Part shown: positions 5,084 to 28,613 of the stretch, in pieces
Numbering within the stretch: the stretch's first letter is position 1
How the letters are laid out: each line of letters begins with the position of its first letter
From: Candidatus Hydrogenedentota bacterium
Lineage (GTDB): Bacteria; Hydrogenedentota; Hydrogenedentia; Hydrogenedentales; SLHB01
Reading direction: 5' to 3'
DNA: 64,000 bases
NCBI GenBank assembly: GCA_963745075.1
Contig: CAVUWV010000021.1
Coordinates: 96,001-160,000, forward strand
The notes under the pieces: generated by a model
What the model saw: the letters and a program-made list of their open reading frames with translations, nothing else
The model's database searches: none
Told to the model about the DNA's origin: nothing
Made by a program: the position numbers and the translations under genes

Positions 5084-6606
5084 CAGCCCGTGGTAAAAGT
5101 CGCTTATCGCCAATTTTTTCTTGACAGATCGTTGGACGTTTGGCACATCGTCATTGTAGCACTGGAGAGGAGAGCGTGCGATGGCGATGGGCGAAGAAAA
5201 ACGGGACCGGCAGGAAACGATGTGGGTGGAGACGAGCTTGTTGCCGCGAGCGCCGGGCCACCCGTTTTACGAGCGGTTGAACGGGGTGCTGAAGAAGCAC
5301 GGTTTCACGCAGTTCGCGGAGGAGGAGTGCAGGCAGTACTACGCGGAGAAGCTGGGGCGGCCGAGTATTCCGCCGACGGTGTACTTCAAGATGCTGTTCA
5401 TCGGTTTCTTCGAAGGGATCGATTCGGAACGAGGGATCGCATGGCGCGTGGCGGACTCGATGGCGCTTCGGGATTTCCTCGGATATGACTTGACCGAAGG
5501 GACTCCGGACCATTCGAGCCTTTCCCGGACGCGGCGCTTGATGAGTTTGGAGACGCACCGGAAGGTGTTTCAATGGGTACTGACGGTGCTGGCCAAAGAA
5601 AAGATACTCAACGGCAAGACGCTGGGCTTTGACGCATCGACTCTGGAAGCGAACGCGGCACTACGCAGTATTGTGCGCCGGGATACGGGCGAGAGCTACG
5701 AGGAGTTCCTGACGCGGCTGGCCCAAGCATCGGGCATCGAGACGCCGACGCGGGCGGACTTGGCCAAGCTGGATAAGAAACGCAAGGGCAAAGGGTCGAA
5801 TAAGGACTGGGAACACCCGTTTGATCCCGACGCACGCATCACCAAGATGAAAGACGGGCGTACGCATCTGGCCCATAAGGCTGAGCACGCCGTGGACCTG
5901 GATAGCGGCGCGCTGGTCGCAGTGACCTTGCAGCCCGCGGACAAAGGCGATCCCGAAACCTTGCGCGAGACGGTGAGAGAAACCGCCGGGAACCTGGCTG
6001 AAGTGGAGCGCGATGAAGAGGCGGCAGACGAATTGGACGAGGACCTCATGAGCGAGGCGGTTCTGGACAAAGGCTACCACAGCAACGAAACATTGATGGT
6101 CCTGGATTTCATTGGTATGCGTTCCTATGCTTCCGAACCGGCCCGTGGCAGACGCGACTGGGAAGGCAAAGACTACGAGCGTTACTGCGTATACGGAAAC
6201 CGGCGGAGGATTCGCGGGAACCGTGGAAAGGCCTTGTTACGCCAGCGCGGGGAAAAGGTCGAACGCACCTTTGCGCACATGTACGAAACCGGCGGCATGC
6301 GACGAACGCATCTGCGCCATCGGGAGAACATCCTGAAACGGGTCCTGATTCACGCCAGCGGATTCAACCTCAGTCTCATCCTGCGCCGCCAACACGGATT
6401 CGGCAAGCCAAGGAGATTGCAGGACGGGTACCGGGTCGCAGAACCGGCCCTTTCTCGTCTGTTTAAGGCGTGCGTGAACACCATACAACGGTTATTCGGC
6501 GTACAAGGCCGCCCAGACAACTTCTGGAATCCCAACCACATCGTGCCGAACGCCACGTGACTCAACTACGAGAGAGAACTCAAAAGATGCCTTTTACCAC
6601 GGGCTG
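5084..6606 (+). mobile_element. Complete insertion sequence (IS1182/IS5-like), 1523 bp, 16-bp perfect TIRs, CTAG target duplication
   Basis: CAGCCCGTGGTAAAAG (5084-5099) / CTTTTACCACGGGCTG (6591-6606); CTAG at 5080-5083 and 6607-6610. Confidence 0.93.
5181..6560 (+). CDS. DDE transposase (DUF772 N-terminus, IS1182/IS5-like)
   Basis: GRPSIPP, SERGI, PDHSSLSRTR, FDASTLEANA, LDKGY, VERTFAH motifs. Confidence 0.92.
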   Translation: MAMGEEKRDRQETMWVETSLLPRAPGHPFYERLNGVLKKHGFTQFAEEECRQYYAEKLGRPSIPPTVYFKMLFIGFFEGIDSERGIAWRVADSMALRDFLGYDLTEGTPDHSSLSRTRRLMSLETHRKVFQWVLTVLAKEKILNGKTLGFDASTLEANAALRSIVRRDTGESYEEFLTRLAQASGIETPTRADLAKLDKKRKGKGSNKDWEHPFDPDARITKMKDGRTHLAHKAEHAVDLDSGALVAVTLQPADKGDPETLRETVRETAGNLAEVERDEEAADELDEDLMSEAVLDKGYHSNETLMVLDFIGMRSYASEPARGRRDWEGKDYERYCVYGNRRRIRGNRGKALLRQRGEKVERTFAHMYETGGMRRTHLRHRENILKRVLIHASGFNLSLILRRQHGFGKPRRLQDGYRVAEPALSRLFKACVNTIQRLFGVQGRPDNFWNPNHIVPNAT

Positions 6607-6947: not shown

Positions 6948-6976
6948 TTGACAAGGACTTAGATTGATGTTATTTT
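6948..6976 (+). promoter_or_regulatory. Putative sigma70 promoter of the 7129-13526 locus
   Basis: TTGACA-17 nt-TATTTT with upstream TG in an AT-rich tract; bracketed by ACTGCAC/GTGCAGT inverted repeat. Confidence 0.5.
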
Positions 6977-7128: not shown

Positions 7129-8364
7129 ATGAGAAATGTTACCACCATCGCTCTGACTCTGCTTTTCTTGGGAAGTCTCGCACAGGCTGCAGCACCAACT
7201 GAGTCGGATCTTCTGACACAACGCCATCAAGCATTCCGAACGATGACAGCCGGGTATCCCATGCAGGCGGCCGTGGATCTCCTCAATGGGATTCATGCAT
7301 TGCCCACGGACGACCCGGCGGTTCTTGACTACGCGGGGGGAAACCTCCAACTCCTGCTCTTCGACACCAACCTTCTCATGACCGAACCCATGCGGAACGA
7401 GTTCTTTACGAAGCTCCTGGATACAAAAGAAAACGAGATTGACGCGTTGATCGCGACCCTGCATGAGGCTTCGTTGAAGCTTACGCCGGAGCAGGCCGAA
7501 GACTTCTTGGGCCGGCTTTGGAAGTACTCGCAAAGTTCCAACGATCTCGTTGCCGGGGTCGCACTGTATCTCCTGGCCGACCCTTACTATACGGAGGACA
7601 TGGACATCGGGATCGAGGCAAGCCACGAGATGGTAACCCGGTATCCCAACCTGGAAGCCACCCGCAATATGCTGGCGCTGCCGATCTACCACCGAAAGCT
7701 CCGCCCAGCCATCGCCGGGGAATGGATACGGGCCTACAAGGGTAAGCCTCAGGAGCCGGGAAAGCCGCGCATCCGCGAGACCACGAACGCGGAGAAGAAT
7801 GTGGCTGCACAGGATCCCTTCATCACGAACGTGGAACCTCTGGTGGACTATTTGAGCCAAAACGAAACGAAACGGAAAGGCATTGAGGGACTTCTCGCGC
7901 TCCTGGCTGATGAAAACACGGATTGGCGGGACCGCTACAGCTACCTGCGGATGCTGGAACCCGAAATGAAACCCCAGCCGGGTGGGACAGGCGCGCAAGG
8001 GTATTGGAAGCTCATCCAGCCCGGTGTGGAATCCCTCGCAAACCGCGGTGAACTCACACCGGATGTATACCACGCCCGGGTGTTGCTTTGCGAAGTGGAA
8101 AGCGCGGCCGGTGAGTTCGAGGACGCTTCGTATTGGGCTGAACGGCTCCTGACCGAGCAGGAGCGGCTCTACGAACATCCTGAACGCATTCTTTACGAAG
8201 AGACGATTCGAGTCTACACGGAGTTCGCGGAGAGTCTCGAAAAGGGGCAGTTGTACGAGGAGGCCGCGAAAACGTACGAACGCTTGGGGGACTACTATCC
8301 GAATAGCGCGATCGCGATTCAAGCACGGCAACTGGCATCGGAGGCGCGCGAGAAGTCCAAGTAG
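7129..8364 (+). CDS. Secreted all-helical TPR-like protein
   Basis: RBS AAAGGA; signal peptide MRNVTTIALTLLFLGSLAQA; C-terminal GQLYEEAAKTYERLGDYYPNS resembles a TPR. Confidence 0.7.
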   Translation: MRNVTTIALTLLFLGSLAQAAAPTESDLLTQRHQAFRTMTAGYPMQAAVDLLNGIHALPTDDPAVLDYAGGNLQLLLFDTNLLMTEPMRNEFFTKLLDTKENEIDALIATLHEASLKLTPEQAEDFLGRLWKYSQSSNDLVAGVALYLLADPYYTEDMDIGIEASHEMVTRYPNLEATRNMLALPIYHRKLRPAIAGEWIRAYKGKPQEPGKPRIRETTNAEKNVAAQDPFITNVEPLVDYLSQNETKRKGIEGLLALLADENTDWRDRYSYLRMLEPEMKPQPGGTGAQGYWKLIQPGVESLANRGELTPDVYHARVLLCEVESAAGEFEDASYWAERLLTEQERLYEHPERILYEETIRVYTEFAESLEKGQLYEEAAKTYERLGDYYPNSAIAIQARQLASEAREKSK

Positions 8365-8479
8365 CGGCGCCGAACGAGGTTTGGACATCATCCGTCCATT
8401 TCATCAGGACGTATAACGAAAGCGAAGAGGGCTGAACGGGCGATCCGGCGCGAGCGCCGCCGCCAAAGGGGACACGGTA

Positions 8480-11400
8480 ATGGGTGGAATCGTTGTTCGG
8501 CGGATGCGGGCCGTCGCTGTTGGCAAGGTCCTTCTTCTGGTGCTGTTAACCGCGCTACTGGGACCCCAAGTCTTCCACCTCGTGGTCCTGGCCTGCGGAG
8601 ACGGGGGAAATGACCCGCCGAACCCTCCCCCACCTGCGAACACGCTCATTGTCAGCATGTCGGGAGCCGGAACCGTTACGGTGAACCCCTACGGAACGGG
8701 AGGCTCGTCTCAAGTCGTTACGTGGTCGGCGCATGTCAACTACACGTCCCCACAGTATGTCTCCTTAACGGCCAGCCCGGCTACGGGTTGGGTCTTTGAC
8801 AAGTGGGAGGAAACCGGGTCTACAAGCGCGTCGATTAGCCCCTATATCTCGGGAACGGACGAGTTCACTGCTATTTTTTCACCAAAACCGCCGGATGAAG
8901 ACCCGGACCAGTGGGTCTCGCTGCGCACGTCCGTATCACCCTCGGGAGCGTTGGCCGCGGGGTGCACGGTATCGCCGGCCGGCAAAACCAACCACGCCTT
9001 GGGAACGGAAGTGCCGCTCAAGCCGCAGGGCGCGGGCGGCTGGACGTTCAGCGGCTGGGACGGACCGGACGCGGACGACGTGGACACCTTCAACGATCCG
9101 CACATGATTGTGATGGACGCGGACAAGAAGGTTACAGCGGTCTTCACACAACAATTCGTGCTGAAAACAAGCACCAAGGGTAAAGGCGAGGTGACGGCCG
9201 TTCCCACCGGACCCACCTATAGTTCGGGAACGTCGGTCGAACTCACGGCCGAGCCGAATACAAGTCAAGGTTGGACCTTCGTGGAATGGCGCAACGATGC
9301 CTCCGGGACCAATGCAGTAACCAATGTGACGATGGACGCGGACAAGCACGCCAAAGCGGTATTCACGCGCGCAAACAGGAAGAGCCTGACGATCACCACC
9401 CCGGAAGGCTGCAAGATCCGGGTCGACGCGAATCCAAACGGGACGAGCAGCGGGACGAATCCGACGGAACCGGGCAACACCATTCTGCAGTTTACAGGTA
9501 CTTCCCAAGTGACATTGCGGGCGCACGTCTTCAGCGAGTACCGGGGGCAGGGCTACCGGTTTGTGCGGTGGGAAGGAGACGTGCCGGCGGGACAGGAGAC
9601 GAGCAATCCGGTGACGATCTCGGTGGACTCGGACAAGTCCGTCGAAGCCGTGCTCGAAGAGACGTTCCGGCTCAAAGTGGAATCCGAAGGGCCCGGCAGC
9701 GTGGATATCGATGCGCCCGCCGGATCGCAGGTGGGCAATAATCGCTACGTCGCTGGCACCGAGATCGGCCTGAGCGCAACGCCGCCGGAGAACTTTGTCG
9801 AGTGGGAAGGGTCCATCGGGGGAAGCAGCCCGGATAAGACGGTGACGATGGACTCAAACAAGTACGTGCTGGCCCAGTTTATGCCGGGAACGGGGGATTC
9901 GCCGCTGGTGAACATCAATTCCGTGGACATCGTGGCGGACACGATCAACGTGACCCTGGCGCCGGATGGCCATTCGGGGCCGTTTTCATTGACCCTGCAA
10001 GGGGACGGCACATCGCACGAAATCATGAGCGCGTCCCGTTCCTCCGGCACGCGGGACGAAAGTTTCGGCGTGTCCGCCATCCCGCCGGGCACGTACCACA
10101 GCATCCTCGCGGAATGGACGGTGGACGACGTGTCGTATTACGACGATTATCCCCTGAACCTGACCATCCTCGGCGGGGGCGAGGGTGAAGCCGAGGCAGA
10201 AGCGGAAGCCGAGGCAGAAGCCGAAGCCGAGGCAGAAGCAGAGGCCGAAGCCGAGGGCGAAGGCGAGGAGGAAGACCCGCCGCCGGTGGTGGTCTATCAT
10301 TATTCGGTTTCCGGCAGTTCGGTGGTCGATCTTCCACCTGCCTATACGTCTTCCGTTCCCGCTACCGAGGATTTCGTGTACGGCTACTTCAACGGCATCG
10401 CCGAGACTTACGCGAACGGGTATCCGGCGAGCGAAGACCCGGCGAATGGGACCAAATACTGCGGTCACAGTTGGGGTTACAGCGGGTATCTAACCGCTGA
10501 GACCAATTTCACGGTGGACTTCGAGGTCGAAAGCCCCAACGCACCTTGCGAGATTACGACGCCTGCGCCCGGAGACAAGGTCACACTGTTCCACAAATGG
10601 ACGGCCAGTGACAGTACCGAGTCCGCCGAGTACGCGGGAACCGCAGAGGTTAACCCGCAAGCCCCCAGTTTGGCGTTGACGGCGCATTTCAGGAACCATC
10701 AGTTGGTACTGGGCACGAATAATGGTCGTGATTATCTTTTGCCGGGCGAAGACTTGGAAGACGTACTTACGTATGATTTCGAGCCAGCTCTTCCAGAATC
10801 TGTGTCGGCCGAGTATACGGTGGAAACCATTGAGAACACGGATGATCGACAGGTTGTCCGAGTTACGGCGACGCTGACTACACCGACCGGAGTTCGATAC
10901 GCGGTGGCAACCGTAAACCACAACAAACTGAATCTTTCTAACATCGACTTCCTTGTCCCCGATGGACAGGGCGGGATGACCGTGCTTGCGCAGGGTGCGA
11001 ACGTTCCGCTCGACTTGGGCCATTACGAGTCGGCAACACAGACGTTTACACCGTGTGCCATGCCGGAAGTGACGGTGAGACTCAACGTACCTTCAAGCGT
11101 GCCGCAGGGAACTACCTACCGGTTCGTCGTCGGTAGCGATGCCTCAGGAGCCCACGCGCTGGAGTATGCCGACGCCCCAGCAACCGGTTACACGCATCCG
11201 GGGGCGTTGGACTCTGGCCAGCTCGCCCAGAACTCGTGGCAGATTGCGTGGGACCAGAATAGCAACGTCACGAATGAAGGGATCTACGGAGGCCATCTTA
11301 AGCGCCTGACCGTGGAGGTCCAGGTGCCGAATCAGGACCCTGAAAAGCAGACTCTGGTCGCGGGTAGCACCGCTGGATTCTCGGGAATCTATATTGTGGG

Positions 11401-12463
11401 GGGCGCGCTGCAACAAGCGACGGTAAATCAGTACATAAACTCCCGGACGCTCAACGATTTTGGACTTAGCACCAGTACAGTACCATTGAGTCAACTGCAG
11501 GCCATGGGTCGCGGTGTGGCTCGATGGGAGACATCGGACAACACTCACTTTCTTCCCATAAACCGTCACGGTTTGGACGGGTACGTATCGCATGACCGCT
11601 ACCCTATTTGGGAACTCAAGTTCACCAACGGTAACCCCAGCAGAGGTTTCGGGGTAGGACTTATGCAGATTTCGGAACAGCAAAACATAAATCGAGCCAC
11701 AATCTGGGACTGGCAACAAAACGTCAACGAGGGGATACAAATGCTCGAATCGTTTTATGCCAGTCAATCGATATTTTACTTGACGGCGCATACCGCCAAC
11801 CCGACAGCCGTTGACCTGCGGTTAACTACATACACGCATTATAACGGTGGCTCCGATTCCCACTATTATTGGTGGAACGATCAGGGCAGCGTCGTATCAT
11901 GTACAGAACTCACGTCGAGCACGACGAACAATACAGAGTCTCACAACCAAGCAACCACCAACTTGAACCTTGAGGTTAACAGTCTCGTTACGGGGCTTAC
12001 AGCGATCACACTTCAAAACGAGAGCAGTTCGACAAACGTAATCCCATGGACCGACCCATTGCCATCAACAAGCCCGTTTCAATGGACTTCGATCGCACTT
12101 ACGCTTTTTGCGACGCAAGGCAACGACTTCGTGTCAGGTTCAGACCAAGATCAAATAAACATCTTCCTATCCCTTGCTTATCAGGGGTCCACAACGCGAG
12201 AACGAATACACGAAGGAGCTCCGGCACCGTATGCAGTAAGCAATACGGCCGGTTTCCGGCCCGCCGCCGGGTGGGCCAAGATGGGATACATCCCTGTGGG
12301 AAATAGGAATGCTGGCTATCGGGATTACAACAGCGACGGGGTTCGTGATCAGCCAGGGGACCCATATAGCATACCCACATTTACCCCAGATTCCGCTCAC
12401 TTGAATAATGTAGTTGCTGATCGCGCTCCGCGATATGCTGACCGAGCATTGGCAGAAGAATAG
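8480..12463 (+). CDS. Large exported protein: five InlB-B-like repeats, (EA)n linker, beta-rich stalk, C-terminal lysozyme/lytic-transglycosylase-like domain
   Basis: Hydrophobic N-terminus ending VLAC; repeats of type V.LTA.P..GW.F..W.....MD.DK...A.F; ARWETS, GVGLMQI, WQQNVNEG and YNGG motifs. Confidence 0.75.
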   Translation: MGGIVVRRMRAVAVGKVLLLVLLTALLGPQVFHLVVLACGDGGNDPPNPPPPANTLIVSMSGAGTVTVNPYGTGGSSQVVTWSAHVNYTSPQYVSLTASPATGWVFDKWEETGSTSASISPYISGTDEFTAIFSPKPPDEDPDQWVSLRTSVSPSGALAAGCTVSPAGKTNHALGTEVPLKPQGAGGWTFSGWDGPDADDVDTFNDPHMIVMDADKKVTAVFTQQFVLKTSTKGKGEVTAVPTGPTYSSGTSVELTAEPNTSQGWTFVEWRNDASGTNAVTNVTMDADKHAKAVFTRANRKSLTITTPEGCKIRVDANPNGTSSGTNPTEPGNTILQFTGTSQVTLRAHVFSEYRGQGYRFVRWEGDVPAGQETSNPVTISVDSDKSVEAVLEETFRLKVESEGPGSVDIDAPAGSQVGNNRYVAGTEIGLSATPPENFVEWEGSIGGSSPDKTVTMDSNKYVLAQFMPGTGDSPLVNINSVDIVADTINVTLAPDGHSGPFSLTLQGDGTSHEIMSASRSSGTRDESFGVSAIPPGTYHSILAEWTVDDVSYYDDYPLNLTILGGGEGEAEAEAEAEAEAEAEAEAEAEAEGEGEEEDPPPVVVYHYSVSGSSVVDLPPAYTSSVPATEDFVYGYFNGIAETYANGYPASEDPANGTKYCGHSWGYSGYLTAETNFTVDFEVESPNAPCEITTPAPGDKVTLFHKWTASDSTESAEYAGTAEVNPQAPSLALTAHFRNHQLVLGTNNGRDYLLPGEDLEDVLTYDFEPALPESVSAEYTVETIENTDDRQVVRVTATLTTPTGVRYAVATVNHNKLNLSNIDFLVPDGQGGMTVLAQGANVPLDLGHYESATQTFTPCAMPEVTVRLNVPSSVPQGTTYRFVVGSDASGAHALEYADAPATGYTHPGALDSGQLAQNSWQIAWDQNSNVTNEGIYGGHLKRLTVEVQVPNQDPEKQTLVAGSTAGFSGIYIVGGALQQATVNQYINSRTLNDFGLSTSTVPLSQLQAMGRGVARWETSDNTHFLPINRHGLDGYVSHDRYPIWELKFTNGNPSRGFGVGLMQISEQQNINRATIWDWQQNVNEGIQMLESFYASQSIFYLTAHTANPTAVDLRLTTYTHYNGGSDSHYYWWNDQGSVVSCTELTSSTTNNTESHNQATTNLNLEVNSLVTGLTAITLQNESSSTNVIPWTDPLPSTSPFQWTSIALTLFATQGNDFVSGSDQDQINIFLSLAYQGSTTRERIHEGAPAPYAVSNTAGFRPAAGWAKMGYIPVGNRNAGYRDYNSDGVRDQPGDPYSIPTFTPDSAHLNNVVADRAPRYADRALAEE
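8640..9880 (+). repeat. Five tandem divergent InlB B-repeat-like (Flg_new_2-type) domains
   Basis: GWVFDKW, GWTFSGW, GWTFVEW, GYRFVRW, NFVEW cores; MDADKK/MDADKH/VDSDKS/MDSNKY ends; boundaries approximate. Confidence 0.75.
10172..10275 (+). repeat. Coding low-complexity GGGEGE(AE)nGEGEEE linker
   Basis: Degenerate hexamer repeats GAAGCC/GAGGCA/GAAGCG. Confidence 0.9.
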
Positions 12464-12521
12464 GCTGATTCCTGTAAAGCAATACGATGTGCAGGAGAAA
12501 TAGAACCAAGGAGATGATTCG

Positions 12522-13526
12522 ATGTCCACTCAGATGCGTGTAAAGCGCGCGCTTCAGACCAGTGCCCTCGTGCTGATGTCGTTTTTCTTGACGTTGGGAC
12601 AGGGCTTCGCTCAGGAGCCGGACTTCCATGATTTACTCCAAGTAGTTCGTGCGGCAACCGCCGATGGTGCCCGGTCTGCGCCGGGGATCGTTGCGCCGCC
12701 GGGTGCTCAGGGTCGTGCAGAGCAAAGCGCGTTAGTACGTGCCCAGGATTTGGCTGATTTGTATCATTCCACGAGTAAACCCATTTTCGGATTGGTCGTG
12801 AAGGGGTTCGAAGCGGGCTTGACGTTGGAGGGTATTCAGCAGCTCTCGGATCCGTACCTGACGTGGAGCGATTGGCCTTACAGGATTGGTCTCGACTCAG
12901 CGGTTAGACCCACCGGATTCGACAACAACGCGGCAAACCAGACTGCTGAAGACTCGCTCAGGGAGCAGGTCGTTCTGATATACCGGGAACATCGGGTGTC
13001 CGCCGACCTGCAACTAATATACCTCCAGACTTCGTACTGCTTTCCTAAGGTTCATGACCAATTCTTCTGGCGAAGCGTGGATATGGGGGTCATTATTCGA
13101 TCACCCGGGGAGGTCCGTCTGACCAGACTGCAATACCCGTTGGGGAATGAGTGGGTCGTGGGCAAGATCCCCGGACTCTTCCCCCTCTTGCTAGGATTCC
13201 TGCAACTCCCAGAGAGGGAGATGCCACTGATACTGGTTGGGCAGGCACCATCCGGTACGCAGCGGAACTGCTCCGTCTACATGTACCTTTGGTCCGACGA
13301 ACAAAACGAGTGGCTACACTTCAAGCTGATAAGCATGGAACACGTTGGAGACCTGATGTTCGATCCTGACACATCGAACTTGCTGATGTATAGCGGCTAT
13401 GCTTTGAATGAGGCGACTGGCCAGGTTGATGTTCCGATCCTCAATACCTCGATTCACGTACCGACGTTCTTGAAGGAGCACATAGAATACGTCAAAGAAC
13501 ATACCGGTATAGACCTATTTGACTGA
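12522..13526 (+). CDS. Secreted hypothetical protein, candidate immunity partner
   Basis: RBS AAGGAG; Sec signal peptide ...LVLMSFFLTLGQGFA|QE; 58 nt after the lysozyme-like gene; lower GC. Confidence 0.6.
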   Translation: MSTQMRVKRALQTSALVLMSFFLTLGQGFAQEPDFHDLLQVVRAATADGARSAPGIVAPPGAQGRAEQSALVRAQDLADLYHSTSKPIFGLVVKGFEAGLTLEGIQQLSDPYLTWSDWPYRIGLDSAVRPTGFDNNAANQTAEDSLREQVVLIYREHRVSADLQLIYLQTSYCFPKVHDQFFWRSVDMGVIIRSPGEVRLTRLQYPLGNEWVVGKIPGLFPLLLGFLQLPEREMPLILVGQAPSGTQRNCSVYMYLWSDEQNEWLHFKLISMEHVGDLMFDPDTSNLLMYSGYALNEATGQVDVPILNTSIHVPTFLKEHIEYVKEHTGIDLFD

Positions 13527-13529
13527 ACA

Positions 13530-14690
13530 GTGGGTATTGAGAATCCGGAAACCGAATTTGTAGAGAACAAATGCGCGAACAATGGAAGTACACGGGGTTG
13601 CACTCAATCTACTCTCTCTATAGGGTATAGCGATGTCCCAAGTGCTCAACAGGTCCGAGCGGCGCGTTTTGCGGTCGCAACTGTCGCACTATTCCTCGTA
13701 AGCACTCTCCTTCCGTGTGCGGCGCAGACCATCAACATCCACGAGCACATCCAGTCCGAGGCCGAAGTGCCGAAGCTGCTGGCAGTGATGGACGCGTTGG
13801 GGATCGAGCGGACGGTGTTGGTGGGGAGTTCGTGGTTCACGATTACGTTGAACGAGGACGTGGGGTTTACCCGGTACGATGAGAACAACGAGGCGTTGTT
13901 GCGTATCGTGGAGCGGTATCCGGGTCGGTTCGAGGCGTGGCCGACGGTCAACCCGGAAGACCCGGAGATGCTGCCGAAGTTTCAGTCGCTGGTGGACCGT
14001 GGCGCGACGGGATTGAAACTGTATCTTGGCCACGGGTTCAAGTCCAAGAAGACGGGCACGTACTTCTTCCACACGCGGCCCCTGGACGACTCGTCGATGC
14101 TGCCACTCTATGCCTATTGCGAGGAACACTTCATCCCGGTGTGTTTCCACGTGAACCCCGGACCGAAGACGCCGGGGTTCGCCGAAGAGTTCATCGCGGT
14201 GCTCACGCAGTTCCCCGATTTGAAAGTCATCTGCCCCCACTTCATGTTGTCGTCGATCAAGGATTCGCGGCTGCGGGAGTTTCTGGACACCTTTCCGAAC
14301 CTGTATTCCGACATCAGCTTCGGCCACGACGACTACCTGAAGGCGGGGCTCAAACGGGTTTCGCGCGATCCCGCCAAGTTCCGGGGGCTGTTCCGGGAGT
14401 ATCCCGACCGGTTCATGTTCGGGACGGACTGCGTGATCACCGCTAACGAGCGGAAACACGAGGCCTGGATTCGCGCGCGGTACCAGTCCTACCTCGACAT
14501 GCTCCGGAAAGAGACCTACCAGTCCCCCCTCCTCCCCGGCCAGACTCTCCACGGCCTCGCCCTGCCCGCCGACCTCCTCGACCCCATCCTCCGCACCAAC
14601 TACGAAGCTTTCCTCAACAAGAAACCCACCGGCACACAAGTCACCAGGGAAATCGATTGGCGCCGCATGGGGGTGATGCACAAGAACTAA
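13530..14690 (+). CDS. Amidohydrolase_2 family protein, probably exported (true start probably downstream, uncertain)
   Basis: INIHEH, GATGLKL, PVCFH, FPDLKVICPH, RFMFGTD motifs; signal-like RAARFAVATVALFLVSTLLPCAA. Confidence 0.8.
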   Translation: MGIENPETEFVENKCANNGSTRGCTQSTLSIGYSDVPSAQQVRAARFAVATVALFLVSTLLPCAAQTINIHEHIQSEAEVPKLLAVMDALGIERTVLVGSSWFTITLNEDVGFTRYDENNEALLRIVERYPGRFEAWPTVNPEDPEMLPKFQSLVDRGATGLKLYLGHGFKSKKTGTYFFHTRPLDDSSMLPLYAYCEEHFIPVCFHVNPGPKTPGFAEEFIAVLTQFPDLKVICPHFMLSSIKDSRLREFLDTFPNLYSDISFGHDDYLKAGLKRVSRDPAKFRGLFREYPDRFMFGTDCVITANERKHEAWIRARYQSYLDMLRKETYQSPLLPGQTLHGLALPADLLDPILRTNYEAFLNKKPTGTQVTREIDWRRMGVMHKN

Positions 14691-22107: not shown

Positions 22108-23355
22108 GTGTACCTAGCCTTGCTATTCTCGAAACCCACGAAAGCCGTCGGTCTTGACATCGGTTCCCACTCGATCAAGGCGGTTCAGATGTCCCGGCAC
22201 GGGGGCAGGCTCCGAGTCGACAATGTGGGCTTTGCATACGTCGACCGGTCCCAATTCAACATGGACCCCGTCATCGCCCAGGCAAGTGCCCTGCGCGAGG
22301 CGGTCCGCACCTTGTCCCTGTCGGGAGCGTATGTTGTCGGAGCGCTTCCCGGACAGACGGTGGTAATCCGGTACCCGCGTCTTCCCGAGATGGACGATGC
22401 CAAGTTGGCGGACTCCATCGAACGCGAGGCGGGCCAGAACATTCCCTACGAACGGTCGGAAGTGTTCCTGGACTGGACGCCGCTGGACCGCGTGACCGAA
22501 GGTTCCAAGACGATGCTCAAGGTGCTGTTGGTAGCAGCGCGGTATGAGGTGGTCGAAACGCGCGTTCAGATTGCCCACGAGGCGGAAATCAACTACGCCG
22601 CGCTGGGGGTGGATTCGCTGGCACTGGCGGACGCCGCCGAAGGGTGCGATTTCCTCCGGGTGGGAGAAACGGTGGCCTTGGTCAATATCGGGCAAACCAC
22701 CACAAGCATACACTTTGTGAAAGACGGTATCTCAAACTTCATCCGTGATGTAAGTTGGGGCTCGCGCGAACTGATTCAATCCATCGCCAAAGCGCGGCGC
22801 GTGGAAATCTCGGATGCGGAAAAACTGTTGGTGTCCTCGGCGGAAGAAGAGCCCGCCGCCTTGGCGCCCCCGCCGCTTCCCGAAGATGACGAGGAGATTC
22901 CCGAGTCTCCCCCGCCGGTCGAGTCCCAATTAGGGGGGCTGGATGAAATGGGAGGCAGTCTCCTCGACCCACTCGAGGAGGAGTTGGGCGGCCTGGACGT
23001 GTCGGCTCCCACCCCGGCAACGCCGGCCCCAGCCGTTGAAGACAAAGATGTCGGCGAGATTCTCGCAACGCCGCTCGCGCGACTGGTCAGTGAGATTCGC
23101 CGTTCCTTCGATTATTACGAACAACAACTCTACGAGCACCCGGTGGACCGGCTGATCGTGAGCGGCGGCGTAGCCCATTTGCCGTTGCTGCGGGAAACGG
23201 TGGCCGATGAACTTGGCGTCGCCGTGGAACTGGCCGATCCGACCCGCAGCGCGCTGGTCCTGGGACCGGAGCACAACGTGGGCCGGATGTTGGAACAGCC
23301 CGCGCAGTTTATGGTGGCCGTGGGACTGGCCGCGAGGGGGATGGCTGACCTATGA
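22108..23355 (+). CDS. pilM: Type IV pilus assembly protein PilM
   Basis: VGLDIGSHSIK, VNIG, EIRRSFDYY, LIVSGG, VAVGLAAR; first gene of the MNOPQ order. Confidence 0.92.
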   Translation: MYLALLFSKPTKAVGLDIGSHSIKAVQMSRHGGRLRVDNVGFAYVDRSQFNMDPVIAQASALREAVRTLSLSGAYVVGALPGQTVVIRYPRLPEMDDAKLADSIEREAGQNIPYERSEVFLDWTPLDRVTEGSKTMLKVLLVAARYEVVETRVQIAHEAEINYAALGVDSLALADAAEGCDFLRVGETVALVNIGQTTTSIHFVKDGISNFIRDVSWGSRELIQSIAKARRVEISDAEKLLVSSAEEEPAALAPPPLPEDDEEIPESPPPVESQLGGLDEMGGSLLDPLEEELGGLDVSAPTPATPAPAVEDKDVGEILATPLARLVSEIRRSFDYYEQQLYEHPVDRLIVSGGVAHLPLLRETVADELGVAVELADPTRSALVLGPEHNVGRMLEQPAQFMVAVGLAARGMADL

Positions 23356-24029
23356 TTCGGATAAACCTGCTTCCCCATCATCTACGACCGATCAAGCGAA
23401 CCCCGCTCCCCTATATCGCGTGCGCGGCGTTGTTCGTGATTCTGCTCCTGGGGATGTTCAGCAGTTACGTCACGACCCAAGCGCAGGTCATGGCCGAGTC
23501 CAAGCATCTCAACCAGTTGCAGACCGACTTACAGAATCTTCAGCACATCGTGGACGAGTCCAACCAGTTGGAAGCGCTGAAACTCCAGTTGGCCGACAAG
23601 ATCAAGACCATCGATGAAATCGTGAAAGACCGGATCATCTGGTCGCGGCAGTTGTGGTTGTTGTCCAAATTGACACCGCCCAACTTCTGGTACAGCGAAA
23701 TACTGGTCACGACAAAGTCGTATCCCATGCAAGAACCCGTATTGGACCCCCAAACCAAGAAACCCAAAATCAATCCCAATACGAACCGCATCGAAATGAA
23801 GACCGTTCAGGTCAGCCGTCCGATCCTGCGGTTGTCGGGCTACGTCATCGACTCGCCGGACGGCAATCAGGATGTAAGTCCTTTGACGGACGCGCTGACC
23901 GAGGACGAGGAGTTTTCCAGCCTGTTCCAGTTGGAACAACCGTCGTTCTCTTCGGATGAATTCGAGGGATTCCCGGTGAAACGGTTTACGTTGGAGTTTC
24001 TCATCACGGCGGGAGGGGCCCGAGAATGA
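23352..24029 (+). CDS. pilN: Type IV pilus assembly protein PilN
   Basis: MIRINLLP motif, TM helix, coiled coil. Confidence 0.9.
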   Translation: MIRINLLPHHLRPIKRTPLPYIACAALFVILLLGMFSSYVTTQAQVMAESKHLNQLQTDLQNLQHIVDESNQLEALKLQLADKIKTIDEIVKDRIIWSRQLWLLSKLTPPNFWYSEILVTTKSYPMQEPVLDPQTKKPKINPNTNRIEMKTVQVSRPILRLSGYVIDSPDGNQDVSPLTDALTEDEEFSSLFQLEQPSFSSDEFEGFPVKRFTLEFLITAGGARE

Positions 24030-24633
24030 TCGAAATCCTGAAAGGCACGGTCACTCCGAAGGACTGGGCGGCGGTCGGTGTGATGGTGGGCATTATGGTG
24101 GCGCTCGTCGCGATCTACGTGTTGTTCGTGCACAAGCATCAGACCGAAGCCCTGGCGCGCGTAGAAGCCCAAACACAGGCCATTCAATCCGATCTCGCCG
24201 AGGCGCGGGATCGGAAAAAGGGATTGGCGAACTTCGCGAAGAGACACGGAAGATTCAGCAATTGGTGTCGGATTTCAACAAGCGGCTTCCGACCCAGCGC
24301 GAAATCCCCGACTTGGTGCGCCAGTTCGAGTCCATGGCCAACGACGTGGGGCTCTCCCATTCGCTGAAACCGGAAGCGCCCCAGCGTGACGAGACCAAGG
24401 AAACCATCCCCTACAGTGTCGACACGTTCGGGAATTTTCACCAGACCGCGAGTTTCATCAATCGCCTTGAGCGATTTGAACGCTATCTGAAAATCAGCGA
24501 CCTCAAGATCGAAGAAGAGGACGCCGGCGTGTCCAAAGCCAGCTTCACGCTCAGTACGTTTCGATTCCTGGGTGAGAATCCGCAAGAAGGACTGCAAAAC
24601 ATGGCGGCTGCGAACACGGGGGGTGCGCCGTGA
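24026..24633 (+). CDS. pilO: PilO, split by a 1-nt frameshift at the A5 run 24215-24219
   Basis: TM N-terminus in one frame; RLPTQREIPDL...GNFHQTASFINRLE in the -1 frame; adding one A gives RKKGIGELREETRKIQQLV. Confidence 0.85.
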
Positions 24634-25277: not shown

Positions 25278-28200
25278 ATGTTACCACGGAATAGAACGTG
25301 CACTGTGGCCGTACTGGCCGCGCTACTCGCCGTAGCGGCATTTGCCGCGACGGATGCCATCGAGGAGCGTAAGGAGAGCATAGTTCGTGTCGCCCTGGAG
25401 AAACAGGGACGCGAGGCGGACACCGCTCTACTCGAATCGGCGCGCAACGCCGCGGCGATTGTGAGCCTGAAGTTGAGCGGCACGCCCGGAGGCTCGATGC
25501 TCCAGATCCATACCAATGGGCGCCCGGAATACGACTGGTTTTTCCTGGATGGCGAGGCAAAACTGGTGGTCGATTTCAAGAACACCATCAACTTCGAATC
25601 GGGCAACGTGCTGAAAGCGGAAAACGACCCATTGATCGAACGGGTGCGAACCAGCTTGTTTGCGCTGGAGCCTCAGTTTGTATCGCGTGTGGTCATCGAT
25701 ATGAAACGCGAAGCAAAACCGCTCTTCCGAGAAGTGGAAAAAGGACTCGAACTGCAATTCGCGTCCGCGGGCGCGCCCATCCAAGAATCCGCGCCTGCCC
25801 CCATTGGCAAAGCGATCGAAGACGTTACGCCAACTTCTCCCTCGGGCGCGGATGGTGAAAAGCCCGCACCGTTGCCGGAGGGCGCCAAACAGATTCTGGC
25901 GGACTTGAACCAACAGGAGCAGGCCATTCGCGACACCCGCGCGAAACTCGAAGAGGCCGCCCTTCGCGATCGCGCGGACCGTCCCGCGGTGAGCCTTGGC
26001 GAGACGCCGGACGCGGACTCGCCGGCCCAGCGTGCGTTGCGCACATTTATCGCGCAAGACGAAGCGACCAGCGCGGAATTCTGGCAGCGGGTCGACGACC
26101 TTACCGCTGCCGCAAACGACCGGATCGCCAAGTTGCGGGCTCGCGTCCGGGAACTTCAGGCATCCATCGAAAACGGCAACGTCGCTGAAAAGGCCGGCAA
26201 GTCGGCCATGCAGGGCCTCGCCAAAGAAGCCCGTGCCGGGATCGATACGGATCGGGCCGCGTTCGCCGATCGTTTCGCTGAACTGAATTCGCAGCAGGCA
26301 CAGTCGCAGGAAGCGTTCGTGCGACTGGCCAACGCCGCCGAACGGTCCCCCTCCCCCACTCCCGATACGGCCCCGGGTGTTTCCGCGAAAACCGTTACCG
26401 AAGCCTTGGAGGGGCTGAGCAAACAGTTGGCGAAAATGCCCGAACTGACCGATGCGAAGCGTGAGGCGGGTTCGGAAAAACAAACCGATGTCGCGGACGT
26501 GGCAGACGCCCCGGAATCGCCCGAAGCGGATGCGATGCTGGACAATACGCTGGCCTCGCTTCAGGAACCCGTCGCCCCGGTGATCGAAGACACCGTCCTG
26601 ACGACACCGGCGTCGGAAATGCAACTGGTAACTTCGGTGCCGTTGGATCTCGCTGCCGCGCAACTCCAGCACGGCGCAGACGCGGCCGCCACCGACCCGC
26701 CTGCGAAGCCGAAGCCGGAATCAACACCGAAGCCAGAATCTACACCGGAACCGGCGCCCGCGCCGGAGACAGAAAACAAAGCAATGCCGACGCCAGCCAA
26801 GGAAGCGGCGCCCGCAAAGGAAAAGGCGCCGGTGCAGGAGAAGCAGGCCGAACCGGTCGAGGCCAAACCAGCCAAAGAAGAGCCCAAACCGGCCGCCGCC
26901 GAGATGAAGCCGGAAGCGAAACCCGCTATGGAGAAGCCCGTCGAGAAACCGGTCGAGCAACCGGCGGCTGCCACGCCGGCAATTGAAACCGTGGAACAGG
27001 AACCCCTCGGCGAAGTCGAACGCCAGCAGCTCCCTCCGGGAATGGACCCCTTGGACCAGCCCGTCAACATCGACTTCCGGGAGATGGATCTGAGCGCAGT
27101 CGTCTCGCTGCTCGCGAAAAAAGCCCAGGTCAACGTGATCGCCGGTACGGACATCATCGGCACCGTAACCGCGGATATCCGCAATGTACCCCTGCGTCAG
27201 GCGATGGACATGGTCCTGCGCATGAACGGCTTGGGGATCGTTGAGGAAGAGGGCGTCTTTCGAATCGTTCCCTATGACGAAGCAGTCGCGGCGCGGCGCA
27301 TGACGCGCATGGTCGTGCTGAAGAACGCGCAAGCGAATGATGTAAAACTAACGTTGGACGGTATCCTCGTCGGTGCGCAGGACGCGCAGCTCGTTACGCT
27401 GTCCGCCAACGACGCCACAAACGTATTGATCGTTTCGGGCCCGGAAAAGCGCGTCGACGAATTTGAAGACCTGGCCCATCAGCTCGATGTATCGGAGCCG
27501 GCATTGCCGACGGTCACCGAGGCGATCAAGTTGAACTACCTCGAACCGGCCGATGCCAAGCCGATCGCCGAGTCGCTCATCACCGAAGATATCGGTAAGG
27601 TCGAGGCGGACGCACAAGGCCGCCACTTGATTGTGACGGATATGCCGGTGGTCGTCGAACAGATCCGCCGCGTCCTGAGCGACGTGGACAAGCCCGTGAA
27701 ACAGGTCGCCATCGAGGCGATGATCGTGGATGCCGTCATGCGCGATGCGTCGCAGACCGGCGTTTCGTGGATGCTGGACGCCATCCGGAAATACAGTACC
27801 AACGGCGACTTGATCAGCGATGTATCGCAGGCGGGTTTCCGAAGCAACCTCGGCGTGCCCTTCGACATAACGGGCAATCCCAGCGCGGCCGGCCTTCCAC
27901 AGGCCCTCGATGCGGGTGCCATCACGTTGGGAATCCTGACCAACGACATCCGGCTCAACAGCGTGATCGCCGCCGAAGCCCAGAGCCGGAACGCGGAAAT
28001 CCTGGCCAATCCAAGCGTGGTCACGGTGGAGAACCAGCCCGCCACGATCTCCATCGTGCAGGAATTCCCCTATCAGGAAATCACCCAGGGGCTGACGGGA
28101 CCGCCCGTCGCGACCACCGAGTTCAAAGACATCGGTGTGACCCTCGAAGTGACTCCCCGGGTCACGCATGAGAACGACACGATTATCGCCATCAAGGCGA

Positions 28201-28613
28201 AACAGAGTTCCGTGAGCGGACTGACGGAAACGGGCGTGCCCATCGAGGATCTGCGCGAAGCCGAAACGACACTGCGCGCTGAGGATGGCCGGACCATCTT
28301 CATCGGCGGCCTGCGCAACGTTTCCGACACCCACGCCGTGAGCAAGATTCCGGTACTCGGCGATATCCCCTTGCTCAACATCATGTTCAAGAACAGCAAC
28401 ATCGAAAAGGTCAACACCGAGCTGTTGATCTTCCTGACGTGCAAAGTGCTCGGCGACAGCCTTCCGGAACTGTCGCCGTCCCATCAGCGGGAATACGATA
28501 AGCTCGATGCGACGCCTGAGGTCCCGGACTCGCAGCGGGCGCTCTTCAAAGATTACGTGAAACCGCAGGAGATGCGCGACCCCATTTGGAAATGGCGCCG
28601 CTCCGTTCGATAG
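25278..28613 (+). CDS. pilQ: Type IV pilus secretin PilQ with AMIN domain and long insertion
   Basis: KLVVDF...VRTSLF...SRVVID (AMIN); VNIDFREMDL (N0); QVAIEAMIV, GVTLEVTP, IPVLGDIPLL, ELLIFLT (secretin). Confidence 0.92.
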   Translation: MLPRNRTCTVAVLAALLAVAAFAATDAIEERKESIVRVALEKQGREADTALLESARNAAAIVSLKLSGTPGGSMLQIHTNGRPEYDWFFLDGEAKLVVDFKNTINFESGNVLKAENDPLIERVRTSLFALEPQFVSRVVIDMKREAKPLFREVEKGLELQFASAGAPIQESAPAPIGKAIEDVTPTSPSGADGEKPAPLPEGAKQILADLNQQEQAIRDTRAKLEEAALRDRADRPAVSLGETPDADSPAQRALRTFIAQDEATSAEFWQRVDDLTAAANDRIAKLRARVRELQASIENGNVAEKAGKSAMQGLAKEARAGIDTDRAAFADRFAELNSQQAQSQEAFVRLANAAERSPSPTPDTAPGVSAKTVTEALEGLSKQLAKMPELTDAKREAGSEKQTDVADVADAPESPEADAMLDNTLASLQEPVAPVIEDTVLTTPASEMQLVTSVPLDLAAAQLQHGADAAATDPPAKPKPESTPKPESTPEPAPAPETENKAMPTPAKEAAPAKEKAPVQEKQAEPVEAKPAKEEPKPAAAEMKPEAKPAMEKPVEKPVEQPAAATPAIETVEQEPLGEVERQQLPPGMDPLDQPVNIDFREMDLSAVVSLLAKKAQVNVIAGTDIIGTVTADIRNVPLRQAMDMVLRMNGLGIVEEEGVFRIVPYDEAVAARRMTRMVVLKNAQANDVKLTLDGILVGAQDAQLVTLSANDATNVLIVSGPEKRVDEFEDLAHQLDVSEPALPTVTEAIKLNYLEPADAKPIAESLITEDIGKVEADAQGRHLIVTDMPVVVEQIRRVLSDVDKPVKQVAIEAMIVDAVMRDASQTGVSWMLDAIRKYSTNGDLISDVSQAGFRSNLGVPFDITGNPSAAGLPQALDAGAITLGILTNDIRLNSVIAAEAQSRNAEILANPSVVTVENQPATISIVQEFPYQEITQGLTGPPVATTEFKDIGVTLEVTPRVTHENDTIIAIKAKQSSVSGLTETGVPIEDLREAETTLRAEDGRTIFIGGLRNVSDTHAVSKIPVLGDIPLLNIMFKNSNIEKVNTELLIFLTCKVLGDSLPELSPSHQREYDKLDATPEVPDSQRALFKDYVKPQEMRDPIWKWRRSVR

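Follow-up and report, generated by a model that had tools for sequence, protein, structure and literature searches.

A probable Sec-exported polymorphic toxin-immunity locus with swappable tips in Hydrogenedentota

Introduction

Do neighbouring genes that each encode an export signal, one of them ending in a lysozyme-like domain, form a weapon with its antidote, or do they serve as secreted enzymes with some other use? The question is raised by a 64,000-nucleotide stretch of DNA (G000:C21:96001-160000, hereafter the window) from a Candidatus Hydrogenedentota bacterium whose genome, G000, spans 6.8 Mb and is 89.7% complete. An earlier note, drawn from this DNA alone, proposed that three co-oriented genes form a peptidoglycan-toxin platform consisting of a TPR helper, a stalked surface protein tipped with a lysozyme and a secreted immunity protein. 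The three open reading frames (ORFs) were borne out on the + strand, encoding a helper of 411 amino acids from the ATG at 7129 (7129-8364), a large protein of 1327 amino acids (8480-12463) and a partner of 334 amino acids (12522-13526); a fourth gene in the same orientation, an amidohydrolase (13530-14690), had been overlooked. The N-termini of all three products are hydrophobic, with 11-residue Kyte-Doolittle maxima of 2.4, 3.3 and 2.5 in a crude test run without a cytoplasmic control, which agrees with the export signals claimed.

Surveyed across 135 Hydrogenedentota genomes, the host genome among them, this is a polymorphic toxin-immunity locus by three genomic criteria: a variable C-terminus, a downstream gene that follows the tip, and standalone cassettes. 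It probably encodes a Sec-exported system comprising a TPR-like helper, a repeat-stalked toxin with a swappable tip, here a predicted goose-type lysozyme, and a tip-specific exported partner.

Results

Exchange of tips on a shared trunk

Ahead of its tip, the large protein carries a conserved trunk (10280-10930, +), in which homology to cassettes with other tips stops at about 10900-10930. A trunk profile that omitted the neighbouring acidic spacer matched 8 places in 4 of the 135 genomes, joined to five different tips: the lysozyme-like tip three times (G000, G003 and G057), an alpha/beta hydrolase tip (DUF900) twice (G000 and G107, 32% identical to each other over 363 amino acids), a polysaccharide deacetylase tip in G057, and two unnamed tips, one in G057 and one in G000. 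Other C-termini are seen in adjacent InlB-repeat genes of G057, namely an M74 murein endopeptidase domain and an HExxH motif, each with an exported gene of its own downstream. The search of related genomes thus recovered the shared trunk with other C-termini and other downstream genes that the earlier note had anticipated; homologues neither keep the same C-terminus everywhere nor lack a linked downstream gene. Its description as a peptidoglycan-toxin platform suits the lysozyme-like tip of the window but is too narrow for the system, which is not limited to peptidoglycan lysis and has tips including alpha/beta hydrolase, polysaccharide deacetylase and metallopeptidase-like domains.

Standalone cassettes of the tip/immunity type are present in an array at the end of host contig C14, in G057:C2 and in G026:C140, the last being a full array that includes orphan tips and partners. 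The C14 end consists of a 667-aa gene, an amidohydrolase, a trunk with an unnamed tip (556 aa), a HEAT-repeat gene, another amidohydrolase, a trunk with the alpha/beta-hydrolase tip (a unit spanning two ORFs, kept unjoined), a 673-aa gene and a shortened amidohydrolase. Its two amidohydrolase-trunk units match each other at 93.6% identity over 1887 bp, and its trunks share 72-74% DNA identity with the trunk of the window. Both cassettes are leaderless, beginning mid-domain and overlapping the amidohydrolase stop, with an N-terminal hydrophobicity of 1.2 compared with 2.0-3.4 for partners. The array (L001:7795-19971, minus strand) opens with a partner of the alpha/beta-hydrolase type, the toxin of which lies past the contig end and was not detected in the rest of the assembly. 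Another arrangement (L024:9063-10945, on G003:C32) fuses the pre-spacer domain to a small tip, 3D-domain-like by eye and without a Pfam match, followed by an exported gene.

A downstream gene that follows the tip

The partner (12522-13526, +) is an exported protein of an unnamed family and a candidate immunity protein. A profile built from four genes located behind the tip showed this family to be the next gene after the tip in 13 of the 16 close loci from metagenomes, the three misses being two loci that end less than 400 nt from the tip and one with a truncated tip; the 16 include the probable duplicate pairs L037/L038, L044/L045 and L040/L048. Among distant loci the family was found behind the tip in 0 of 37 from metagenomes and 0 of 6 from genomes, which have other genes downstream. 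It also lies directly 3' of the tip in G003, G057, G052 and a Verrucomicrobiota genome, and the partner in the window is 25% identical (E 1e-20) to the gene behind the G057 lysozyme-like tip. The reverse test found the family in 10 of the 135 genomes, at four places behind the tip and at two at contig ends. The adjacent tip-specific gene that had been proposed is also seen with four further tip types, each repeating its own partner in a second genome: the alpha/beta hydrolase tip in G000 and G107 (different families), the metallopeptidase-like tip in G057 and G107, and two unnamed types in G107/G057 and G003/G037.

Hydrophobic N-termini were present in all 21 partners examined, several of which also have a C-terminal hydrophobic tail. 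The partner model combines N-terminal helices with a beta-sheet domain (pLDDT 76, the per-residue model confidence). The predicted complex of tip and partner scored 0.58, compared with 0.00 for the best of three controls. In the calibration, 116 of 157 solved pairs passed the mark, as did 2 of 215 mismatched ones; passes at 0.60 or below numbered just 18 of the 157 solved pairs and both mismatches. The runs agreed in at least 58% of contacts, with a partner pLDDT of at least 67, and lend weak support to tip-partner binding. No inhibitor match was found for the partner in Pfam, NCBIfam or the PDB, and the nearest named Atlas cluster, PliI (score 0.85), is a lead only. PliI and PliG are periplasmic inhibitors of goose-type lysozymes. 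An orphan ORF in G003:C42 (L102:6632-10021) contains the partner domain in two copies.

The helper gene as a marker of the system

The helper (7129-8364, +) is an exported helical/TPR-like protein whose match to TPR_6 (E 3e-5) falls under the cut-off of that family, and homologues are present in 30 of the 135 genomes. Beyond the window there are 40 helper loci, 9 of which stop too early to read. The next gene encodes an InlB-type repeat protein, by our own lenient profile, in 24 of the 31 readable loci, against a background of just 3 strong InlB ORFs across the whole of G000; of the 24 followers, 18 were checked against Pfam and 13 matched PF18998 at E<=0.001, 11 of them above the cut-off. The TPR-like gene therefore marks the system and is tightly linked to InlB-repeat proteins with variable ends. 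These proteins range from 260 to more than 3700 aa, some ending in DUF7689, with stalks built of InlB B, Ig-like, PKD and Calx-beta repeats and with RHS cores (RHS_repeat, DUF6531) in L137 and L149 and in the second gene of L158.

The seven exceptions to this order include two loci split by an insertion element, of which that in G003 retains a shortened trunk-tip gene and partner and that in G005 (G005:C90) an orphan partner and amidohydrolase. Two others are short contig ends. At a further two, the helper precedes a pair of partner-like genes and a Cys-rich protein, respectively, and the last is a helper fragment 3' of a tip-partner pair. The Cys-rich protein (L165:1878-3859, on G054:C13) lacks InlB repeats and has a twin-arginine-like leader. 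In two genomes of the genus the locus is broken by the same short element, which resembles a transposase and sits immediately after the helper gene or within it (L023:4806-5561 and L133:9703-10458).

A goose-lysozyme-like tip

The tip of the window consists of a beta-rich domain that accompanies the lysozyme-like core (10931-11404, +), the core itself (11420-11881, +), with a helix bearing Glu1017, a G-x-G-x-MQ hairpin and YNGG, and a beta-rich insertion found in a subset of the family with a conserved tail, GYRDYNxDG ... RYAD (11882-12463, +). The lysozyme-superfamily motifs described earlier were all located, with ARWETS beginning at 11519 (Glu1017 codon at 11528), GLMQI at 11657 and YNGG at 11840. 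Glu, GLMQ-type and YNxG motifs have known roles in g-type lysozymes.

When the last 357 residues were searched against 1.84 billion representatives, 32 proteins matched at E<=0.001; these carry the tip module after unrelated N-termini (TSP3, CARDB/fn3, InlB), and the ten closest share invariant Glu1017, G-x-G-x-MQ, W-x-W, Y-N-G and the tail RDYNxD..RYAD. A core profile of 25 rows, all gathered with the protein of the window and with no known lysozyme added, retrieved five PDB sequences at E<=10, all five of them goose-type lysozymes (best E 0.0022), with which the core motifs Glu, G-x-G-x-MQ and Y-N-G align. Modelling of residues 818-1327 gave a confident structure (pLDDT 83.5, predicted template modelling score 0.84): the beta domain comes first, then a helical core in which a long helix has Glu1017 at its end and leads into the hairpin, and finally the beta insertion and tail. 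The tip is likely to be lysozyme-like, with good support from sequence but not from structure search.

Among the loci L032:235-3977, L052, L063, L065, L080 and L081, distant relatives of the core precede small lipoprotein-like genes, that of L032 lying beside a gene ClpV-like by eye, and others precede beta-propeller-like genes. A standalone gene combining peptidoglycan-binding and goose-lysozyme-like parts, recognised by eye, lies 5 kb from the G003 locus (L023:12499-13380). G000 also has a second wall-hydrolase architecture, in which peptidase M23, BACON, SLT-like and InlB-repeat parts are combined in a secreted but fragmented gene (L002:5819-10403, on C30, minus strand).

Leader, stalk and surroundings of the locus

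The export leader of the large protein (8480-8596, +), recognised from its sequence and from homologous leaders, ends in VLA-C. The lipobox claimed there is present as VLAC (coding position 8585), but it is only lipobox-like and makes lipoprotein status doubtful: a classical GAG-C is present in L163, the corresponding position lacks Cys in several homologous leaders, and cleavage may be by signal peptidase I or II. No C-terminal anchor was found in the large protein. Five InlB B-repeats form the stalk (8645-9889, +, limits approximate; PF18998 E 3e-29), followed by a beta-rich domain (9920-10171, +), inside which the leaderless C14 cassettes begin, and the acidic (EA)n spacer (10178-10274, +; EAEAEA at 10187), both repeats and spacer as first described.

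The lower GC content noticed in the 3' part of this gene and in the next gene also held, at 0.51 for the tip (as low in 2.1% of 6410 genome windows) and 0.54 for the partner gene (5.0%), compared with 0.59 for the genome. The proposed AT-rich promoter is partly upheld, by a GC of 0.37 and a sigma-70-like candidate TTGACA-17-TG-TATTTT (6948-6976, +) that scores 10/12 and lies in an AT-rich gap, but promoter-like sites are not above chance in number (3 found, 3.4 expected). The adjoining insertion sequence corresponds to a transposase with DUF772 and DDE domains (5181-6560, +), an upstream neighbour outside the system. Only one full-length relative of the tip region was found in the 90% collection, labelled Candidatus Hydrogenedentes.

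The amidohydrolase (13530-14690, +; PF04909) is a common phylum gene, present in 46 of the 135 genomes and seen adjoining the system in this genus only. It recurs there with each cassette and is read here as a passenger supplying 3' homology. Searches of the 89.7%-complete G000 for Hcp and VipB found neither, and seven secretin matches were found. PilM/PilN/PilO-like genes, recognised by eye, lie at 22108-24247 of the window with a secretin match at about 27978-28451, 9-15 kb downstream of the locus, and are a possible export route for the system.

Discussion

Comparison with known systems

The closest parallel is MafA-MafB-MafI of Neisseria, described in PMC4287609 and in part of PMC3482391 as a helper, a signal-peptide toxin with a constant N-terminus and variable C-terminus, an immunity protein and C-terminal toxin/immunity cassettes. 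Both systems share the order of helper, constant-N/variable-C signal-peptide toxin, cognate immunity gene and cassette arrays, both are lineage-restricted, and the route across the outer membrane is not established for either. They differ in that the helper of the window is TPR-like and its toxin has a repeat stalk, which MafB lacks; the named tips here are envelope-acting and every partner examined looks like an exported protein, while MafB, where characterised, is an RNase. Pfam and NCBIfam found no MafA or DUF1020/MafB-N domain in the locus, and by analogy the system would work like MafA-MafB-MafI without any shared domain.

Polymorphic toxins dependent on Sec and the type II secretion system (T2SS), including RHS types, likewise have a signal peptide as their only secretion marker in the relevant part of PMC3482391, and some TPR-led members share RHS_repeat and DUF6531 with them. 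Table 1 of that paper gives no signature neighbour gene for this class, unlike the present system with its dedicated TPR-like leading gene, InlB B-repeat stalk and, in most members, no RHS core. Toxins that carry a lipobox or signal peptide and have immunity proteins in the membrane or periplasm, treated in PMC12419801, have in common with it an exported toxin, an envelope target, an extracytoplasmic partner and Ig-like anchoring repeats, but the carriers described there are cystatin-like or GbpC/MucBP and the toxin domains are others. Goose-type lysozymes (PDB 1gbs, 153l, 3gxk, 3mgw and 4g9s) share the core motifs, and the tip of the window adds a flanking beta domain, an insertion and a conserved tail.

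The absence of RHS, CdiA and type VI secretion system (T6SS) markers reported by the earlier note holds at the locus, where Pfam finds no YD-repeat core and Pfam and NCBIfam find no TpsB transporter gene or haemagglutinin repeats of contact-dependent inhibition (CdiB was not searched genome-wide), but it does not extend to the RHS-bearing relatives L137, L149 and L158. T6SS effectors differ in that the toxin of the window has an export leader, in a genome without detected Hcp or VipB. No description of the system was found in literature on Hydrogenedentota toxins, InlB-repeat toxins and DUF7689, the supplements of PMC3482391 and PMC12419801 and subscription journals being outside its scope, and this is likely an undescribed antibacterial toxin-antidote system, with an extracytoplasmic site of action predicted for its antidotes.

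Proposed mechanism and alternatives

Judging from their leaders, all three proteins would reach the periplasm via Sec, where the helper, linked to the repeat protein in most readable loci, may chaperone or pilot it. The toxin is proposed to cross the outer membrane, perhaps through one of the secretins, and to be held at the surface or shed. The predicted goose-type lysozyme tip would cut the peptidoglycan of competing bacteria, with the conserved Glu1017 as its putative catalytic acid, while the co-inherited partner would bind and block the tip in the producer's own envelope. Tip and partner would be replaced jointly by recombination in the trunk with leaderless cassettes of the kind seen in the arrays, the amidohydrolase gene providing homology on the other side in this genus.

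Several observations weigh against this reading. The loci counted are not independent, since many helper-bearing genomes are related (genus g45) and metagenome contigs are partly duplicates. The C14 cassettes may serve another, unassembled full-length gene, because trunk identity is only 72-74%. The partners of a weak tip pair, DUF7689 in G026 and G047, have no match at E<=0.001, and the partner family occurs at five loci with no lysozyme tip upstream (G003:C42, G031, G114, G023 and G002), which fits orphan immunity but also an independent job. A lysozyme must moreover reach the wall of an outer-membrane-bearing target, and no device for that was found.

These solitary partners would also be expected if the proteins were secreted hydrolases working in parallel to digest dead or living cells as food or to remodel the wall of the producer itself, with the partner as a folding chaperone or regulator. 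The named tips are indeed ordinary envelope hydrolases (lysozyme-like, M74 endopeptidase, deacetylase, alpha/beta hydrolase), and section 37 of PMC3482391 treats constant-N, variable-C effectors deployed in parallel. Leaderless mid-domain cassettes with their own partners and members with RHS cores follow instead the pattern of polymorphic toxins, and the partner kept after toxin loss in G005:C90 and the patchy presence within the genus also speak for a toxin system, making parallel hydrolases an unlikely account. Variable surface adhesins or antigens, with a gene order reflecting co-transfer only, would explain stalks built of adhesin-type repeats (InlB B, Ig-like, PKD, Calx-beta), but the tips retain catalytic motifs and partner identity tracks the tip rather than the stalk, so that this account is very improbable.

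A toxin system of the kind preferred here could also carry a tip that is not an active lysozyme, but a binding domain or an enzyme of other chemistry. Foldseek with the 510-residue tip model found nothing at E<=0.001, and its list was headed by beta-sandwich proteins and contained no lysozyme. The broader profile A1 retrieved no lysozyme from the PDB, and Pfam Lysozyme_like reached an E of just 0.087 for the tip of the window and 0.001 for its best relative; the long conserved tail, moreover, is not known from lysozymes. The invariance of Glu, G-x-G-x-MQ and Y-N-G in the ten closest relatives, their alignment with goose lysozyme and the modelled position of Glu1017 at the end of a long helix, ahead of the hairpin, make a non-lysozyme tip improbable.

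Implications

A broader proposal, which is tentative, is that of a phylum-wide weapon platform, in which a TPR-like pilot would export InlB-repeat carriers with or without RHS cores, bearing swappable tips that attack the envelope, with immunity wholly extracytoplasmic, the helper representing an export or display route unlike the named systems and the partner a new family of lysozyme inhibitors.

For Hydrogenedentota, an almost unstudied phylum, this is the first candidate system for interbacterial conflict, and its one marker gene, the helper, leads to unnamed toxin tips and their matched partners by the dozen. The probable new lysozyme subfamily and the candidate new inhibitor family are both small enough for laboratory testing, and the system makes testable how signal-peptide toxins of diderm bacteria, such as MafB, exit the cell and reach their target.

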